Positions 53,692 to 64,000 of a stretch of 64,000 nucleotides of DNA are shown here, in pieces. Both the position numbers and the translations under genes were made by a program. Source of the DNA: Victivallaceae bacterium (lineage in GTDB: Bacteria > Verrucomicrobiota > Lentisphaeria > Victivallales > Victivallaceae); contig JBAYIO010000005.1 in the NCBI GenBank assembly GCA_041665605.1, positions 20,641 through 84,640 of the forward strand, in the 5' to 3' direction. Under the pieces are notes generated by a model. The model saw nothing but the letters and a program-made list of their open reading frames with translations. It was not told the DNA's origin and did not search any database. How positions within the stretch are numbered: position 1 is the first letter of the stretch; the number at the start of each line of letters is the position of its first letter.

Positions 53692-54504
53692 TCAAAATGA
53701 GATTTGTTGTTTTCTGAACTCGGCTGGTGAATAGTTTGTTGTCTCCTTGAACGCTCTTGAGAAATGATATCTGTCTAAAAATCCAGTCTCCGTGGCGATA
53801 TCGTCGAGACTTTTATTAGTCAGGTGCAGCAGGATTGATGCTTTTTCAATCCTTTTTCTGCGGGAATATTTCTGGGGGGTGATCCCGAGCTCCTTCGCGA
53901 ACAACCTTATGAATCCGTTCACGGACATTCCCGCATTTTCAGCCAGTTCTTCGTTTGGCACAATTGTTGAGGTTTTTTTGTTGAGTGTATCCAGTGCCGC
54001 TTCGATTAATGGTGAACATCTTTTCAATCTTTTGAATTCGCTGTCTTTGATTTTTAGAAGCATGGAGCATACTACCGCGTGGGTTAACAAGCTCAGGTGG
54101 ACAGAACTCAGTACGGCCTGGCTGGGAATAAGAGATCGAATCATTTCTATTTGCTTTATAACAATCTCGTCGGCCGGGAAGAAATAAATTTTCGATTTGA
54201 TCTGATCGAAAGGTACTCCTGCGGTGAAATGAAGAAAAAAATGATTGAATGGCAATTTAAGTTCGGTGGAGAACAACGTCTCCGGCGCGATCAGACAGAA
54301 TTCTGTCGGTTCCAGCCGGTGTTCAAAATAACTGGTGCTTATAATAGCTCCAGCAGTGTTGTTCCAGTATAAACACCAGTATGAGTTGAAAATATTTTTA
54401 TAGTTCCACGTAGTTATCCCATAGCGATAATCACACCGCATGATTTTAATATCAGGATCATGACATTTATCCATGATAAATAGGCTCCTGTTTGAAATAT
54501 ACAC
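53692..54504 (-). CDS. AraC family transcriptional regulator
   Basis: C-terminal HTH pair (LAENAGMSVNGFIRLF...ATETGFLDRYHFSRAFKETTNYSPAEFR). The start codon is uncertain. Confidence 0.8.
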   Translation of the reverse strand: MYISNRSLFIMDKCHDPDIKIMRCDYRYGITTWNYKNIFNSYWCLYWNNTAGAIISTSYFEHRLEPTEFCLIAPETLFSTELKLPFNHFFLHFTAGVPFDQIKSKIYFFPADEIVIKQIEMIRSLIPSQAVLSSVHLSLLTHAVVCSMLLKIKDSEFKRLKRCSPLIEAALDTLNKKTSTIVPNEELAENAGMSVNGFIRLFAKELGITPQKYSRRKRIEKASILLHLTNKSLDDIATETGFLDRYHFSRAFKETTNYSPAEFRKQQISF

Positions 54505-56947: not shown

Positions 56948-57787
56948 ATGAAATTAAGAGACAAATTCTGGTTATGGGGGCAAAGCGCGGGCAGCCATCA
57001 CTTCCATCAGGACAAAAACATGCCTAATGGCAATGTATATGACTTGCCTGGTACTAACGTGATGGAATCGGCGGAGGGCGGTAAATTCTTCGGGATTCCG
57101 AATTGCTGCCGGGTGGTGATGAGTTCAGGTCCGGTACCGCCGTTCGATGCGGAATCGGAAAAACTCAAAGACTTCAAGCAGGTCGTCTGGTCGGCAGTCG
57201 GAGCTGGCGGCGTGGCCCGCAACAGCGACGATAAAAGTGACATTGACGAAGTGATCCGGCAGGCCGGGAAATATCCGAATATTACCGGAGCCGTCCTTGA
57301 TGACTTCTTTAAGTCCGTGGAAGGCTTCAATATCGGCGACTCAGTCGCCAGGCATACGGTCGGCAGTATCGCTTCCATTCGGGACAAACTGCATAACTTT
57401 CCTGGACGGAAACTCGATTTGTGGATGGTATGGTACTCCTATCAATTGGATTTTAAAGTCGCGGATTACATTTCATTATGCGATGTAATTACATTGTGGA
57501 CGTGGAAAGGATCGGATCTGGCGATTCTTGATGAAAATATCAGGCGGTTTATAATTAAGACTCCCGGCAAGCGGCGTCTGGCCGGTTGTTATATGTGGAA
57601 CTACGGCGAGTCCAGGCCTCTGACGAATAAACAAATGCAGGATCAGCTTGATTGTTATTATCGCTGGATTAAAGGAGGCGACATTGAAGGTATTGTGCTG
57701 TGTTCCAATTGCATCGCCGATATCGGATTGGAAGCTGTGGATATCACACGGCGCTGGCTCGACACCGTCGGGGATGATGAGATATAG
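56948..57787 (+). CDS. hypothetical protein
   Basis: 279-aa ORF, last gene of the 54605-57787 cluster. No family recognised. Confidence 0.55.
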   Translation: MKLRDKFWLWGQSAGSHHFHQDKNMPNGNVYDLPGTNVMESAEGGKFFGIPNCCRVVMSSGPVPPFDAESEKLKDFKQVVWSAVGAGGVARNSDDKSDIDEVIRQAGKYPNITGAVLDDFFKSVEGFNIGDSVARHTVGSIASIRDKLHNFPGRKLDLWMVWYSYQLDFKVADYISLCDVITLWTWKGSDLAILDENIRRFIIKTPGKRRLAGCYMWNYGESRPLTNKQMQDQLDCYYRWIKGGDIEGIVLCSNCIADIGLEAVDITRRWLDTVGDDEI

Positions 57788-58057
57788 AGTAGTCGCCCTT
57801 GACGCAAGTGAAAAAAGAGACTGCGGATTAATGCCTGAACCAGATAACCTAGATAACAAGCACCGAAGAATCACAAAATAGTTCGCGATGTCCTCCCCTC
57901 AATCTAAAAAACATTACGTGCAGCAATTTTGCTTGCAAATATCTTGCAAAGTATAATCTTATTAAGCTCACTATGCGGATATTTTGATCCGTCATAAAGA
58001 GGCATTGCATAAATTTAAATATTTATCAATAAAATTAAATAAAATTGTATAAAAAAG

Positions 58058-58086
58058 TTGACAAATGTTTTTTGAAGTACTATAGT
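58058..58086 (+). promoter_or_regulatory. sigma70-type promoter (TTGACA-17 nt-TATAGT)
   Basis: TTGACA at 58058-58063, a 17-nt spacer, then TATAGT at 58081-58086. ATG 58093 begins 7 nt after the -10 hexamer. Confidence 0.5.
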
Positions 58087-58092
58087 ATTTAT

Positions 58093-59271
58093 ATGATAAC
58101 ATTATTAGAACCAATTAATAAACGAAGTCAGGCTGTTATGGAACGACAGCGAGTGGCGGATATTTTGCAAAAAGCAATCCTGAACGGCACTTATCAGACA
58201 GGTATGGCGTTGCCTACAGAAACAGAGATGATGAAAGTTTACGGATTGAGTAGACACAATGTTCGTATGGCATTCGAGGTTTTACTGAAAGATAAGCTCA
58301 TTAAAAGAACTCCGGGACGAGGTACAGTTGTTGCTGGTGCAATAGAGAATTCAAAATCTACAATGATAAGCTATGTACTGCAAAGTCCTCAGGACTGGCT
58401 GTGCGCCGGAGTAATGCAGGGATGTAATGATTTTTTTAGTGGCTCTGATTACCGTTTTGAGTTTGTACAATGTGGTGATTTGGCGGATGAATTTGATTCT
58501 TGCATTGATCGTCTCATAAATATGCCGCCAGCTGGCGCTGTAATAATGCCCTTGCCGTGGCACGACAATAATGAATGGGTTTTTAAATTAAAACAGGCGG
58601 GAATACCGTTTGTAACAGTTGACTCCTATCCCTTTGGCTGTAATTGTAGTTCGGTGGAAATGGACAATCGACTTGGCGGTTATCTGGCAGGCAAGCATTT
58701 TATAGAACAAGGTTACAAGAACCTGTTTTGGGTTGGATATGAGCAGGCAAGCAGCACTTATCGACTTCGCTTTGAGGGTTTTATGGATGCGGTCAAAGAA
58801 TCGATTGAAAAAGTGAAAGTATGTATGCCGTTGCACTATAAATTAACGGCTAAAGCAGAGCGGGAGCATCTTCGTCCCTGGGAAGCATGTCAGGTTTTTT
58901 GGCGCGAAATGGTTACGCGATTGGATAAATCAATGTTTCCAGCAGGTGTATTTGCCGGTAGTGATATAGAAGCCTATGGAGTAATGCAGGCTTGTAAAGA
59001 GTTGGGTTTTGATATAGGCAAAACGGTTGGCGTAATAGGATTTGATGATCGTGATTTGGCGGTTATGGGTTCACCATTGCTTTCCTGCGTTCGTCAATCA
59101 CCTGAAAAGATGGGGGCTGCCGCCGCCCAACTATTAAAAATACTAATTGAAGATAATGATTCAAAATGCCAGCATATTATGCTAAAAACAGAATTGATTT
59201 TAAGAGAATCAAGTATATTGAAACTAAAACCCCAAGGAGAAAAGATTAAAGGAGATATATTGCAAAATTAA
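58093..59271 (+). CDS. AraR-type chimeric regulator (GntR wHTH plus LacI/PBP1 domain)
   Basis: wHTH: [42 protein letters not shown]-terminus has LacI-type blocks ([25 protein letters not shown]). The track's TTG start (58045) spans the promoter, so ATG 58093 (possibly leaderless) or ATG 58138 is more likely. Confidence 0.8.
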
Positions 59272-59303
59272 CAAGTTTAACAAGTTTAACAAGTTTAACA
59301 AAG
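59268..59303. repeat. 9-bp tandem repeat (TTAACAAGT x3 plus TTAACAAAG)
   Basis: Read directly from the sequence. The first unit contains the regulator's TAA stop, and the array ends 14 nt before the pseudopilin ATG. Confidence 0.9.
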
Positions 59304-59317
59304 GGAAAAAATTTAAA

Positions 59318-59983
59318 ATGAAAACAAAAAGAATTTTTACACTTATTGAGCTCCTAATAGTAATCGCTATTATTGCAATTCTAGCTGGAATGTTACTGCC
59401 AGCTTTGAATAAAGCACGTGACAAAGCAAAAGCAATTTCTTGCATAAATAATTTAAAGCAACTTGGATTGACTAATTTTGTTTATGCAGGTGATTATAAT
59501 GATTTCTTTGTAGGATACGATACCGGTCCTTCAAGTTATGATTCTTATTGGCACCGCTACACTGGACCTGATAATTATCATAATTTGGGAAGATTGTTCA
59601 GAGAAAATTATATTAAGAACCCTGCCATAATTTGTTGTCCGTCAGCACTTTACCCTGCCTGCCAATATAAACCGGCTGACTGGAAAAGAGCAACAGGTCC
59701 AGCAGCCATTGTGAGAGGCTACTATTATCATGGACGAAACGGCTGGGCGACTGGTACTGATAGAGACAAAGATGTTCGTTATAATAGAGTTAAAAACCTT
59801 GCTGGTAAAGCCGTTATTTTTGACCCTCCTTTTAATAGTATATTAGCAAATCATATAATAACGTTTAACGTATTTTATGGAGATGGTTCTGCTCATGCGG
59901 TAAAATGTTCCGGATGGTCAGCAATTGGTGATGCGTCACAAACAGGTTTTGATAAAATAATGAAGTACATGGACACTCATTAA
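59318..59983 (+). CDS. prepilin-type N-terminal domain protein, H-X9-DG family (pseudopilin-like)
   Basis: [39 protein letters not shown]-terminus. C-terminal [12 protein letters not shown]. Confidence 0.9.
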
Positions 59984-60353
59984 TTACAAAGTGTATTATA
60001 AGAGCTATGAAGATTAGCTTACTGCAAGTATTCTATATGTTGCTTAACATGCATTTTATATATTTAAACTATAATTTCTTCGCAAACTAGTGCCTGAACG
60101 AAAGCTATGAAATGCCTTGATTTTAAAGAGGTTATCAATGAACTTTGGGAGTGAAGATTTTTCAGTCCAAGTCATTTCTCTCTTAAAAAAGCAAAATTCA
60201 TTCAATAAATGTACGGCATATTGAAGCAATTCAATAAATTTCTAAAATATTCGGGTCGACAGTTGAACGTTAACTCATTTTGAATAATAGAGTTAATGAG
60301 TTTTCGTTCAAGCACAAGCTAAAGAAAACTATAATATAATAATGGAGTAAATT

Positions 60354-62510
60354 ATGAAGCTAAAATTATTAATATTGATATTAATTTCATTCGTTTATAC
60401 AGTTCAGAGTAAAGAGATTTTTAAAAGTAATTTTTTGAATGATGACAATCTGAAGCAGTGGAAAATTATGAAATATACCAAAGGCGAAAAAACAGGCGAG
60501 GCGATGCCGGGACGCATGGTCAACAAACAGCGTCCAATGATCTTACTGTCTCCTGATAATAAGAGTTGGGGATTTGTTGAAAAAACTTTTTCAGGAACCG
60601 AATTACCTAAAGGAGAAAAAATAAGACTGACTGTTTATTTACAAACTAATAATTGTAAAAATGTAGATTTAATAATCTCAGACGGTGTAAGTTGGGGAGG
60701 AGATGTTAAACGATATAGCAAAAGACATCCAAAGGAAAATTTTGCATGGGAAAAAGTCGTGGCAATATTTGACCGTTCGGATACAAACAATTTAATCAGT
60801 GTTGCAATTGGGCTGGATTATAGGACAGAAGGCACCTGGGTAGCAATTGACACAGTAGTAGTAGAATGCGCTGATAAATTTACCGAGAATACAGAAAAAG
60901 ACTCTTTGCCAGATTACAAAGTATGGCTCGAATCAAAAAAAATAGCAACATGGGTTTTGCCGAAAATTAATAAATGCTCTGAGGATTTAAAAACATATTT
61001 CGGTGCGGACGAAAATGCTATGAAAGCTTTTAATGGGGAGTTGCAGAACCTTAATAGAATAAAAAGCATAATTCAAAATGAAGAGTATATTTGCGCACAA
61101 GAGACAAAATATGTATTTAGTTCTGAACAATTAGGTTTTTTATGGAAAATATGTAACAGTTTAACATTTTTTAATGAGAATACTATTCTTACACCGGAAA
61201 ACCAGACCATATATGAAATGAATGCTGCTCAGAACGCACAAGAGATGTGTATTATTATGTTGCGTAATAATTTCGATTCGATAAATCGTTTTAAAGTTAG
61301 TTTAAGTGGTAATATTGCTAAAAATACCAAATTATATAGTATGGAATATATTGATAAATCCCCAGACTGTATCCGTCCAATGACTAATGACAGTTTTATT
61401 ACTTTAGGAAAGAGACAAACAGGTGGAATATTGATAATTTGTTCAACTCGCAATATTAATGCTGGAGAATATAAAGGAGTCGTCACTATAACGCCGTTTA
61501 ATTCAGAACTAGCGGTGCAAGAAAAAAAAATTAAGCTAAAGGTTTATCCCGTTAAATTGCCGGATGAAATGCCAATTAACATCTTTCATTGGGATTATAA
61601 TATAGCGTTAAAACCAGCATGGTTGGATTTTTTACTTGCGGGTAGAGTTAATACATTTCATATATCTAATTTGCCAGAACCTAAGGCACCGTATGATTTT
61701 TCCGCATTGAAAAAAGCAGTTACAAATATTCAAAATCAAAATAGAGGGCATCAATTCACATTAATTCTAGAATCATGGTTTGTTCGTGAAAGAGGCGGTT
61801 GGAAAAATGAATATATCCCATGGCTGAATGCATTGACTGTTGTTATGGCAGAGCTAGGATTGAAATATGATAATTGGTATCTCGAAGTATATGATGAAAC
61901 TCTTTCTCCTGAATTTTTAACTACTGCAAAAGCAATTAAAAAAATAAATCCTAAAATTAGGATATTTTCAGATTGTATTGTTAAAGATAGTAATGTAATA
62001 GATAATTTTACTCCATATGTGGATATGTGGAGTCCTTATGTTAAGCATTTGCCACCTGAAACAAATGAGTATGTAAAGTCACTTGAAAGAATGCAGGCAA
62101 GTAAACTGCCTCTATGGACATATAATTGTGATTCCCAACCATCGCAAGAATTATCCTTGTATCGCATTCAGCCTTGGATCGCACGAATGCATAATTTGGA
62201 TGGGTGTGCATATTGGACAGCAAAAAGCTGTGAAGAGCGTCCGGCTGGTAAATTTAATTACGGGATGACATATACGGATGACAATGGGAACCCATTGGCG
62301 AGTCGCCGATGGGAAGAGTGGAAAAGTGGTTTGGAGGATTATCTTTTACTTTATGTTGCGGATCAGAAAGCAACAAAGATTGGTGATAAAGAACTCAAGC
62401 AAAAAGTTAAATTAGCAATTTCAGAAACGATTGCTAATCGTAGTTCCCCAAAACTTGGATTGGTAATTAATAAATGGAAAGAAATCTTACTTGATAGTTT
62501 AAGTAAATAA
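60354..62510 (+). CDS. secreted protein of unknown family (possible DUF4091/GH123-like hydrolase)
   Basis: 718 aa with signal peptide MKLKLLILILISFVYTVQS. The WYLEVYDET and VDMWSPY blocks resemble DUF4091-type enzymes as recalled (weak). GGAG RBS. Confidence 0.65.
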   Translation: MKLKLLILILISFVYTVQSKEIFKSNFLNDDNLKQWKIMKYTKGEKTGEAMPGRMVNKQRPMILLSPDNKSWGFVEKTFSGTELPKGEKIRLTVYLQTNNCKNVDLIISDGVSWGGDVKRYSKRHPKENFAWEKVVAIFDRSDTNNLISVAIGLDYRTEGTWVAIDTVVVECADKFTENTEKDSLPDYKVWLESKKIATWVLPKINKCSEDLKTYFGADENAMKAFNGELQNLNRIKSIIQNEEYICAQETKYVFSSEQLGFLWKICNSLTFFNENTILTPENQTIYEMNAAQNAQEMCIIMLRNNFDSINRFKVSLSGNIAKNTKLYSMEYIDKSPDCIRPMTNDSFITLGKRQTGGILIICSTRNINAGEYKGVVTITPFNSELAVQEKKIKLKVYPVKLPDEMPINIFHWDYNIALKPAWLDFLLAGRVNTFHISNLPEPKAPYDFSALKKAVTNIQNQNRGHQFTLILESWFVRERGGWKNEYIPWLNALTVVMAELGLKYDNWYLEVYDETLSPEFLTTAKAIKKINPKIRIFSDCIVKDSNVIDNFTPYVDMWSPYVKHLPPETNEYVKSLERMQASKLPLWTYNCDSQPSQELSLYRIQPWIARMHNLDGCAYWTAKSCEERPAGKFNYGMTYTDDNGNPLASRRWEEWKSGLEDYLLLYVADQKATKIGDKELKQKVKLAISETIANRSSPKLGLVINKWKEILLDSLSK

Positions 62511-62734
62511 CGTCGTACTCAAGTTTGTCAGCGCCGATTGAAAATTGCGCTTATCCTCGAAAGCTGGACAACTTGCATAAGTGTAAAAGACTCTTAATTT
62601 AAAACTAAAAATAAGGAGCTAAGTTGGTTTTCAATTGAGCTTCAGCGCAGATGCATCACTCAGGATTTTAAATATAATTTGCATGTATAATATAATTAGT
62701 ATCTGAGACATATAATCAATATTGGAGATATAAA

Positions 62735-64000
62735 TTGAAGAAATCACCCAAAGTGGCAGTCATCGGCGCCGGCAGTTACTTCTTCGGCAAACCGGTAATA
62801 TGGAAGATGGTTAACAGCGAATATCTGTGTCATGGCACCCTGGTGCTGGTGGATACCAATCCCGCGGCGCTTGATACAATGATGAAGCTTGCCCGGCGTG
62901 CCATAGACGCAACCGGAGTTCCGACGAAACTGATTGGCTCCGTTGACCGCAAGGAAGTACTGAATGACGCTGATTTCGTGGTTTTGACTTTTTCCGAACG
63001 CAACGCCCACTATCGCGGCGTTGACACTCGGATTGCTGGCAAATATGGCGTTACTATGTGTTCGTCCGACACCATTGGCCCCGGGGGGATATTCCGTGCA
63101 TTAAGGGAAATTCCGCATGTTCTGGACGTTGTCGAAGACATCAGGAAACTTGCTCCCAATGCCTGGGTTATCAATTTTATTAACCCTTCCTCTGTGCTTG
63201 GAATAGCGTTGATGCGTTATGCGCCTGACATTAAGAGTTTCGCACTGTGCGACGGGAATCATCTGCCGCATTCCAGATTGAATTACATGAAGTTTGCCGG
63301 AGTCCTGCCTGAAGACGCTGTATCCATTCCACCGGAACTTGACGCAAGATTCGACATCAAAATAGCCGGAGTCAACCATTGCACCTGGGTGACGAAATGT
63401 ACTTTCAACAGAAAGGATATGATGCCGGCCTGGCGGGAAAATCTTGCAAAACATGCTGCCGCGGAATGGGAGACAGAGCCCAGTCCGAAAGCCAAGCCGC
63501 GTCTGAATATGAATTATGCGCTGCAATTGTTCGATATTTACGGGGCTTATCCGACAGCACCCAGCCATACTAAAGAATATGTTCCTTTTTTTCAAGGGTA
63601 CGGTGTAACGCCGAACGAACCGGAGCCGATTATCCTGTTCGACGCTTACAATCGCGCAAATGAAATGAAAGCGGCCTGGGAGAAGACCGAAAAGCTGGCA
63701 AACGGCGAAACCCCGATTGATGAATTTCTTAAGATGGATCATGGCGACCATGCAACCGATATCATTGAAAGCATGTGCGGTGATTTGAAGAAGCCGTTCT
63801 TCATTAACAGTCCCAATCGCGGAGCAGTAACCAATATGCCTGACGACGCATTACTGGAACTGGAATGTGAAGTGGATATGAATGGCATACGCCCGAAGCC
63901 TTTCGGGGAAATGCCGCGCGGACTGCTTGGTTTGCAGATGCAGGTACTCGACTCGCATGAACTGACGGCGGAGGCCGCCGTCACCTGCGACCGCAAAACC
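62735..64000 (+). CDS. GH4 family glycosidase, 3'-truncated by the window end (absent from the supplied ORF track)
   Basis: TTG start at 62735 with GGAG 7 nt upstream. I translated all 422 codons to base 64000 without meeting a stop. KVAVIGAGSYFFG (Rossmann), SSDTIGPGGIFRALREIPHVLDV, WVINFINPS, ALCDGNH and GVNHCTW are GH4 blocks. Confidence 0.85.
   Translation, partial: MKKSPKVAVIGAGSYFFGKPVIWKMVNSEYLCHGTLVLVDTNPAALDTMMKLARRAIDATGVPTKLIGSVDRKEVLNDADFVVLTFSERNAHYRGVDTRIAGKYGVTMCSSDTIGPGGIFRALREIPHVLDVVEDIRKLAPNAWVINFINPSSVLGIALMRYAPDIKSFALCDGNHLPHSRLNYMKFAGVLPEDAVSIPPELDARFDIKIAGVNHCTWVTKCTFNRKDMMPAWRENLAKHAAAEWETEPSPKAKPRLNMNYALQLFDIYGAYPTAPSHTKEYVPFFQGYGVTPNEPEPIILFDAYNRANEMKAAWEKTEKLANGETPIDEFLKMDHGDHATDIIESMCGDLKKPFFINSPNRGAVTNMPDDALLELECEVDMNGIRPKPFGEMPRGLLGLQMQVLDSHELTAEAAVTCDRKT

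Follow-up and report, generated by a model that had tools for sequence, protein, structure and literature searches.

We analyzed a 64,000-bp stretch of DNA (hereafter, the window) from a Victivallaceae bacterium, which corresponds to C5:20641-84640 of a metagenome-assembled genome (MAG) of 5.39 Mb in 183 contigs with a GC content of 49.3%. Toward the right end of the window, between a native gene for a 279-aa protein and a native GH4 glycosidase gene, an AT-rich segment carries three genes in the same orientation, which encode a regulator of the AraR type, a prepilin-type protein (pseudopilin), and an exported protein of 718 aa that resembles GH123 glycoside hydrolases (Table 1). The JGI metagenome containing this contig was obtained from a landfill-associated groundwater sample (bioRxiv 10.1101/2024.05.30.596742).

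Table 1. Features of the AT-rich segment and its flanks (window coordinates)
Feature	Coordinates	Strand	Basis and properties
Left flank: native 279-aa gene, last gene of the AraC-controlled M24/amidohydrolase/ASRT operon	56948..57787	+	GC 0.494, GC3 0.573
Left junction, 221 bp of unique DNA	57788..58008	.	GC 0.398; no match to congeners or L031; sole genome BLAST match is itself
Island core (block common to L031: regulator, pseudopilin, GH123-like gene)	58009..62511	+	blastn against L031; GC 0.352
Regulator of AraR-type architecture (GntR winged helix-turn-helix plus periplasmic-binding-protein-like sugar-binding domain)	58093..59271	+	Pfam
9-bp tandem repeat, between regulator stop and pilin start	59263..59298	+	Repeat search (family D1)
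Prepilin-type (pseudopilin) gene, DUF1559 N-terminus, C-terminal H-X9-DG	59318..59983	+	Pfam, regular expression
Pilin-enzyme spacer (370 bp)	59984..60353	.	Alignment to L031; synonymous-divergence step inside
718-aa exported GH123-like glycoside hydrolase, N-terminal signal peptide and extra beta-sandwich	60354..62510	+	Profile, predicted structure
IS3-family scar: left terminal repeat and leader, ends at ribosome-binding site	62545..62618	+	Genome BLAST; 74 bp
Native GH4 promoter and leader	62661..62734	+	Aligns upstream of GH4 in G002 and G003; GC 0.203 yet native
Right flank: native GH4 glycosidase gene, continues past the window end (461 aa in contig)	62735..64000	+	Glyco_hydro_4 E 4.8e-44; GC 0.503

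A preliminary description of this DNA had proposed an AT-rich island of ≈5 kb at positions 57790-62734 from hand counts of GC, and these counts were sound. The GC content of this interval is 0.353 (35.3%) compared to a genome mean of 0.493, and only 0.12% of 4.9-kb windows slid along the genome (n = 9125; mean GC 0.495; standard deviation [sd] 0.034) are as low. In a 400-bp profile, GC drops from 0.44-0.53 to 0.28-0.44 between ≈57.8 and ≈62.8 kb and then settles at ≈0.50. A likelihood fit of two change points over 55-64 kb placed the AT-rich segment at 57900-62744, with a GC content of 0.351 inside and 0.494 outside (log-likelihood ratio 94.6). Relative to 3294 long open reading frames (ORFs) of the genome, whose GC content at third codon positions (GC3) has a mean of 0.583 and an sd of 0.086, the GC3 of the regulator (0.343), pilin (0.244), and 718-aa gene (0.269) falls at percentiles 1.4, 0.15, and 0.36, respectively. 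In Karlin codon-usage distance from the genome, the same genes rank in the top 1.06%, 0.12%, and 0.39%. Moreover, the pilin GC3 lies far below that of the other prepilin-type genes of the genome (≈150 in all; 5th percentile 0.41). The neighboring genes on both sides show ordinary GC3 and codon usage. Thus, the proposed island is borne out, with compositional steps at ≈57.8 and ≈62.8 kb, three outlier genes, and unremarkable flanks.

The gene content given in the preliminary description likewise agrees with Pfam. The regulator, for which ATG 58093 is the likely start (the mechanical ORF starts at TTG 58045) and for which gene callers give a length of 392 aa, matches GntR (E 1.4e-12, residues 35-96) and Peripla_BP_3 (E 1.6e-26, residues 217-390). 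AraR of Bacillus subtilis is a GntR-family repressor with a LacI/GalR-type effector domain; the island regulator has the same chimeric architecture and is similarly encoded beside glycan-degrading genes. Unlike AraR, to which it has no detectable orthology, it heads a pilin-enzyme operon and not an arabinose regulon. The pilin scores above the Pfam cut-offs for N_methyl (26.9 bits; cut-off 21.2) and SBP_bac_10 (DUF1559; 26.8 bits; cut-off 23.3), where the latter match covers profile positions 2-34 only. An N-terminal methylation motif with a hydrophobic helix and Glu+5 is present, as is the C-terminal H-X9-DG motif by regular expression. The prepilin peptidase site has no Gly at position -1, and Ile precedes FTLIE. 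The three genes include no prepilin peptidase or secretion machinery; hence, the module depends on host pilin machinery and is not fully the self-contained functional cassette that the preliminary description envisaged.

The 718-aa protein had been described as a secreted unknown. A Sec-type signal peptide can be read from its sequence, in agreement with export, and the protein can now be placed near a known enzyme family. Pfam GH123_cat matches it with E 3e-4 and 20.7 bits, which is under the gathering cut-off of 23.1. A family profile built from an 11-sequence alignment of homologues matches NgaDssm, a beta-N-acetylgalactosaminidase (PDB 8k2j), with E 5e-8. In this alignment, a Y-D-E triplet of the family (Y513-D514-E515 of the 718-aa protein), in which all three residues are invariant across the 11 homologues, stands opposite A-D-E of 8k2j. 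An AlphaFold2 model of the protein (pLDDT 82.9; pTM 0.71) was compared by Foldseek with PDB structures, and every one of the top 22 matches is a GH123/Nga enzyme (E 2e-24 to 1.5e-19; TM 0.57-0.66, normalized by target length). The predicted fold, with the beta-sandwich and TIM-barrel catalytic domain typical of GH123, resembles those of BvGH123 (PDB 5l7u), CpNga123 (PDB 5fqe), and NgaDssm over ≈560 residues (best Foldseek E 2e-24; TM 0.62-0.66 by target), and the conserved adjacent Asp-Glu pair aligns with the D-E of NgaDssm, which in GH123 belongs to a substrate-assisted mechanism. Unlike these enzymes, with which it shares only 13-18% identity, the 718-aa protein has an extra N-terminal beta-sandwich and helical linker (residues ≈20-260). 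The profile match, the D-E pair, and the structural matches of the model imply that the protein is a distant GH123-like hexosaminidase, and its predicted activity is probably that of a beta-N-acetylgalactosaminidase or beta-N-acetylhexosaminidase.

Comparison with relatives showed that the low-GC block is not syntenic in them. Nucleotide homology to congeners ends at the stop codon of the 279-aa gene (57787) and restarts at ≈62661, so both GC steps coincide with synteny breaks. In the congeners G003 and G002, the orthologues of the 279-aa gene (80-82% aa identity) are followed by other pilin-enzyme modules, which consist of a different pilin and a 1056- or 1127-aa protein, and the genes found at that place in G002 and G003 are missing from the genome studied here. 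On the other side, GH4 is 91-92% identical in amino acid sequence to its counterparts in G002 and G003; upstream of these, the place of the island is taken by a divergent 272-aa AraC gene. None of the four other species of the genus (genomes 91-96% complete) has the enzyme gene; they contain only paralogues at E ≈1e-8, and the best enzyme match among 40 relatives shows 30-38% identity. When 144 family genomes were searched at the DNA level with the regulator and pilin half of the block, only the 100-190 bp of the conserved pilin N-terminus matched, and the block is lacking in 143 family genomes. An exact-protein look-up of the 279-aa flank protein returned the same context only and no alternative one. 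Duplication within the genome was considered as a source of the three genes and rejected, because identity to the closest paralogues there is 25% for the regulator, 36% for the pilin head, and 22% for the enzyme.

A search of 5.8 billion proteins returned one protein with 86-87% identity to the enzyme, and the next best matches were 35-36% identical. This protein is encoded on a 9.3-kb Logan contig of run SRR24204448 (L031), which carries a second copy of the block and where the regulator (82% aa identity; 390 aa), pilin (71%), and enzyme (86.6%) occur in the same order. By blastn, nucleotide identity to L031 is 80.6% across 58009-60084 and 91.3% across 60312-62511, and nothing matches beyond these limits. 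In the genome studied here, no DNA matches the flanks of L031. These hold a broken gene of ≈690 aa, an McrB gene truncated at its N-terminus, McrC, and two further ORFs; the ≈690-aa gene belongs to a Victivallaceae-wide family and shares at most 50% identity with any family genome, congeners included. Because homology to L031 stops at the edges of 58009-62511 and the flanks are unrelated, the three-gene block is a discrete unit that occurs in two unrelated neighborhoods. The region that follows the block on L031 (4546-6664), with the broken ≈690-aa gene and the truncated McrB gene beside McrC, has in itself the appearance of a decaying accessory or defense neighborhood.

The two copies are not uniformly diverged. 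Synonymous divergence (dS; Nei-Gojobori method) from L031 amounts to 0.23 in the enzyme and to 0.65-0.68 in the regulator and pilin, and the dS of native flanking genes to their counterparts in block-less congeners runs from 0.8 to saturated. The proportion of synonymous differences (pS) to L031 is uniform at ≈0.44 throughout the regulator and pilin and is ≈0.20 in the enzyme (chi-square p = 1.2e-13), which implies that the regulator-pilin half and the enzyme half have different histories. The step falls within the pilin-enzyme spacer, where an indel is also found: ≈226 bp (roughly 60085-60311) that are absent in L031 and that are bracketed here by an imperfect 14-bp direct repeat (GAAAGCTATGAAAT / GAAAACTATAATAT). 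No Rfam family matches this spacer. The tandem repeat between regulator and pilin also varies in length between the copies, being 17 bp (≈2 units) shorter in L031 by alignment. We conclude that the enzyme gene shares a more recent ancestor with its L031 counterpart than the regulator and pilin genes do and that recombination has occurred inside the cassette. The preliminary description had the module moving as a unit; its occurrence as a discrete block in two contexts agrees with that claim, and its mosaic structure does not. The genes are intact, and the ratios of nonsynonymous to synonymous divergence (dN/dS) to L031 are 0.14-0.27 (regulator, 0.14; pilin and enzyme, 0.26-0.27), implying that they are functional and under purifying selection. 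The flanking genes, at 0.05-0.14, are under tighter constraint than the pilin and enzyme. Within the pilin, the proportion of nonsynonymous differences reaches 0.20-0.22 in the head.

The outlying composition of the block, its absence from four congeners and 143 family genomes, the synteny breaks at its edges, and its second context on L031 together argue for a lateral origin. We consider it probable that the AT-rich segment is a small genomic islet, that is, a three-gene glycan-utilization operon acquired by lateral transfer from an as yet unsampled lineage of low GC in the same phylum. The donor, which we infer along with the direction and mechanism of transfer, was most likely also a member of the Lentisphaerota/Victivallales. 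Where the preliminary description spoke of a horizontally mobile module, the foreign or accessory origin is thus well supported, and the account has been corrected for a trace of an insertion sequence (IS; see below), mosaicism, dependence on the host, and the supposed change of base composition on transfer.

Several observations weigh against a lateral origin. No donor was found: apart from L031, the nearest homologue in the protein search is 35-36% identical, and two scans of metagenome contigs for close relatives of the enzyme were empty. L031 is AT-rich throughout (GC 0.355 overall and 0.363 outside the block) and therefore gives no proof that the block moved between genomes differing in GC; since the only other carrier contig is equally AT-rich, movement between genomes of different base composition, as the preliminary description had it, is an interpretation. 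If the L031 organism belongs to the same genus, vertical descent with loss in the other congeners is possible. The congener genomes are strongly rearranged around pilin modules, and hence the synteny break taken alone is weak evidence. Pilin modules occur in ≈5-6 of the genome's 18 low-GC islands, compared to ≈3-4 expected, which is no enrichment beyond chance. No tRNA and no integrase, recombinase, or transposase ORF was found in the island, direct or inverted repeats at its boundaries amounted to short matches at chance level, and the single trace of a mobile element at the island is one truncated IS3 end, which could stem from a later, unrelated insertion.

These points bear on a different explanation, in which the operon is ancient and native, was inherited vertically and lost in the sampled congeners, and became AT-rich by local mutational bias or by relaxed selection on a rarely expressed accessory operon. 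The dN/dS values of the pilin and enzyme, which exceed those of the flanking genes, and the lack of mobility genes and direct repeats fit this explanation, as does the age of the gene order in Victivallales. A regulator-pilin-GH123-like architecture is found in G036 (34% identity), and at informative homologue loci the pilin gene precedes the enzyme in 6 of ≈10, with a regulator of ≈380 aa as well in 4 of those 6. Except for one contig titled Verrucomicrobia and one titled Ruminococcaceae, the enzyme homologues come only from Victivallaceae, Victivallales, and Lentisphaeria MAGs, all within the Lentisphaerota. However, these homologues are encoded at 42-68% GC, the same as their own flanks, which argues against a segment that is ancient and simply AT-biased and led us to reject the idea that low GC is intrinsic to the enzyme family. 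In a maximum-likelihood tree of the enzyme, the window and L031 proteins form a pair on a long stem (support 100/100) and are the sole members encoded at 34% GC. The architecture is thus old within the order Victivallales, but the match of homologues elsewhere to host GC implies that AT-richness is a property of the cassette lineage of the window and L031. Vertical inheritance is further disfavored by a GC3 that lies 4 sd under the genome mean, by the sharp steps at both block edges, by the placement of the L031 sister copy between unrelated flanks, and by a dS to L031 (0.23-0.68) that is below the dS of native genes to block-less congeners. It would also require loss in at least four congeners and in all 143 family representatives. 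An ancient native operon therefore appears unlikely. Orthology of the whole module with that of G036 was examined separately and was not supported for the regulator (26% identical) and the pilin (match at the N-terminus only).

We also weighed whether the segment is an element, bounded by IS copies like a composite transposon or otherwise mobile, that still transposes as a unit. The preliminary description was right that no integrase, transposase, or tRNA gene lies at the edges, and it overlooked a 74-bp IS3-family end at the right edge. This scar starts 34 bp after the enzyme stop codon and ends 42 bp ahead of native DNA, and it is 98.6% identical to a resident copy at C1:35045-34972 and ≈90-95% identical to C11:296-222. 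The C1 copy lies directly upstream of orfA (HTH_Tnp_1, E 1.4e-8) and a frameshifted orfB (rve, E 5.7e-22). The IS copies start with TG, and IS3 ends begin with TG. Although the scar speaks for a mobile element, it is one end only: IS homology in the window stops right after the ribosome-binding site, with no transposase gene behind it, and the left edge shows neither a second IS copy nor an inverted terminal repeat, and there is no target-site duplication. In addition, this IS sequence is missing from the L031 copy of the block, and the only near-full IS copy of the genome is frameshifted. We regard continued transposition as very unlikely. The absence of a recombinase, tRNA, or direct repeats leads to the conclusion that the islet is not self-mobile. 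The IS3-family element itself is decaying in pieces across the genome: the near-full copy spans C1:33700-35045 with frameshifts in orfB, truncated left ends occur in C5 (74 bp) and at C11:185-296 (112 bp, with 11 codons of orfA kept), and a more diverged fragment lies at C39:40099-40157. The copies at C1, C11, and C39 are not beside other pilin modules or low-GC islands.

That the segment results from chimeric assembly or misbinning of two organisms' DNA might be suspected from the 183-contig MAG, the deviation of the island from its bin in composition, and the repeated IS end at one junction, but such an artefact is extremely improbable, since both junctions are found at 100% identity in contigs from ENA (92.7 kb) and JGI (95.1 kb), a Logan contig of 5.2 kb (L034) spans the left junction and ends inside the IS3 scar at 62587, as expected of a repeat, and the island lies in the interior of a 95-kb contig, where housekeeping genes (mur ligases, groEL, dnaK) occur to its left and right.

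Under lateral acquisition, the following course of events can be proposed. The block would have been acquired from outside and would not yet have ameliorated to the 49% GC of the host, having been inserted at a rearrangement-prone point between the native 279-aa and GH4 genes. On the most economical reading, an IS3 element may have inserted at or near the right junction, followed by deletion of the IS body and probably of the AraC gene that precedes GH4 in relatives. In operation, the regulator would de-repress the operon upon sugar binding, and the enzyme, by way of its cognate pseudopilin, would either use the host type II secretion/type IV filament machinery for its export or be displayed on it, and would free GalNAc or GlcNAc from glycans. 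The interval between the enzyme and GH4 (62511-62735) contains no convincing terminator-like site, and no Rfam family was found at the island boundaries; transcripts of the acquired operon may now continue into GH4. In congeners, an AraC regulator gene stands ahead of GH4, and this gene is absent here.

The islet resembles classical genomic islands and islets in its deviant GC and codon usage, sharp boundaries, sporadic occurrence among its close relatives, and accessory cargo with a metabolic role, and in having an IS remnant on one side. It is unlike them in being very small (4.5-4.9 kb), in lacking an integrase, tRNA target, and flanking direct repeats, and in that its donor appears to be from the same phylum. 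A composite transposon would have two bracketing IS copies and a target-site duplication, whereas the islet has one IS3 left end, which is truncated, at its right edge and none at its left. There is also a likeness to the polysaccharide utilization loci (PULs) of Bacteroidota, in which a sensor/regulator, an accessory protein of the cell envelope, and a secreted glycoside hydrolase are encoded side by side as a substrate-specific unit that varies among related genomes and can be acquired laterally. In contrast to these PULs, the islet has no SusC/SusD pair and no conjugative element, its accessory protein is of the prepilin-type DUF1559 kind, and the roles of its parts are putative.

As a small genomic island with glycan-utilization cargo, the islet is of a known kind and introduces no new principle of genome evolution. 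Its lateral acquisition would mean that the many pilin-linked glycosidase operons of Victivallaceae include at least one that is accessory DNA, here with boundaries and a second genomic context, and that such cassettes can undergo internal recombination. A probable activity, that of a GH123-like hexosaminidase, is also given to a protein family that Pfam does not annotate. These results bear on how the poorly studied Lentisphaerota of anaerobic habitats acquire their substrate range. A broader model agrees with the data, which we put forward tentatively and hold to be rather doubtful. In this model, the glycan-degrading repertoire of Victivallaceae would evolve by lateral exchange of compact regulator-pseudopilin-enzyme cassettes; each pilin would serve its own cassette as an adaptor, docking the enzyme of that cassette onto a type II secretion/type IV filament machine common to all, and recombination in the spacer would re-pair enzymes with regulator-pilin pairs. 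If the model is true, such cassettes would be a non-Bacteroidota analogue of PUL exchange, and the pS step from 0.44 to 0.20 at the spacer with the 226-bp indel would be a footprint of cassette shuffling. A literature search found no description of DUF1559 pilin-glycosidase cassettes.

Some further observations concern the flanks and other parts of the genome. Of the loci G003:C266 (L028) and G002:C869 (L030), one has after the 279-aa gene an entire additional block, encoding a pilin and proteins of 1127, 328, and 178 aa, that the other lacks; this position is a hotspot of module gain and loss in the genus. The AraC gene at 53692-54504, upstream of the M24/amidohydrolase/ASRT operon in the window, is itself rather AT-rich (GC 0.41) and shares only 39% identity with AraC at the G003 locus, compared to 73-80% for the genes of the operon; the place of the AraC gene within this operon is different in G003. 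Other low-GC stretches with a regulator and/or a pilin plus secreted-protein module lie at C62:20378-25340, C109:1079-4176, C74:6072-13569, and C3:94676-101222. The rest of the low-GC islands in the genome resemble defense or restriction-type genes, such as a 1615-aa ORF at 30% GC in C32.

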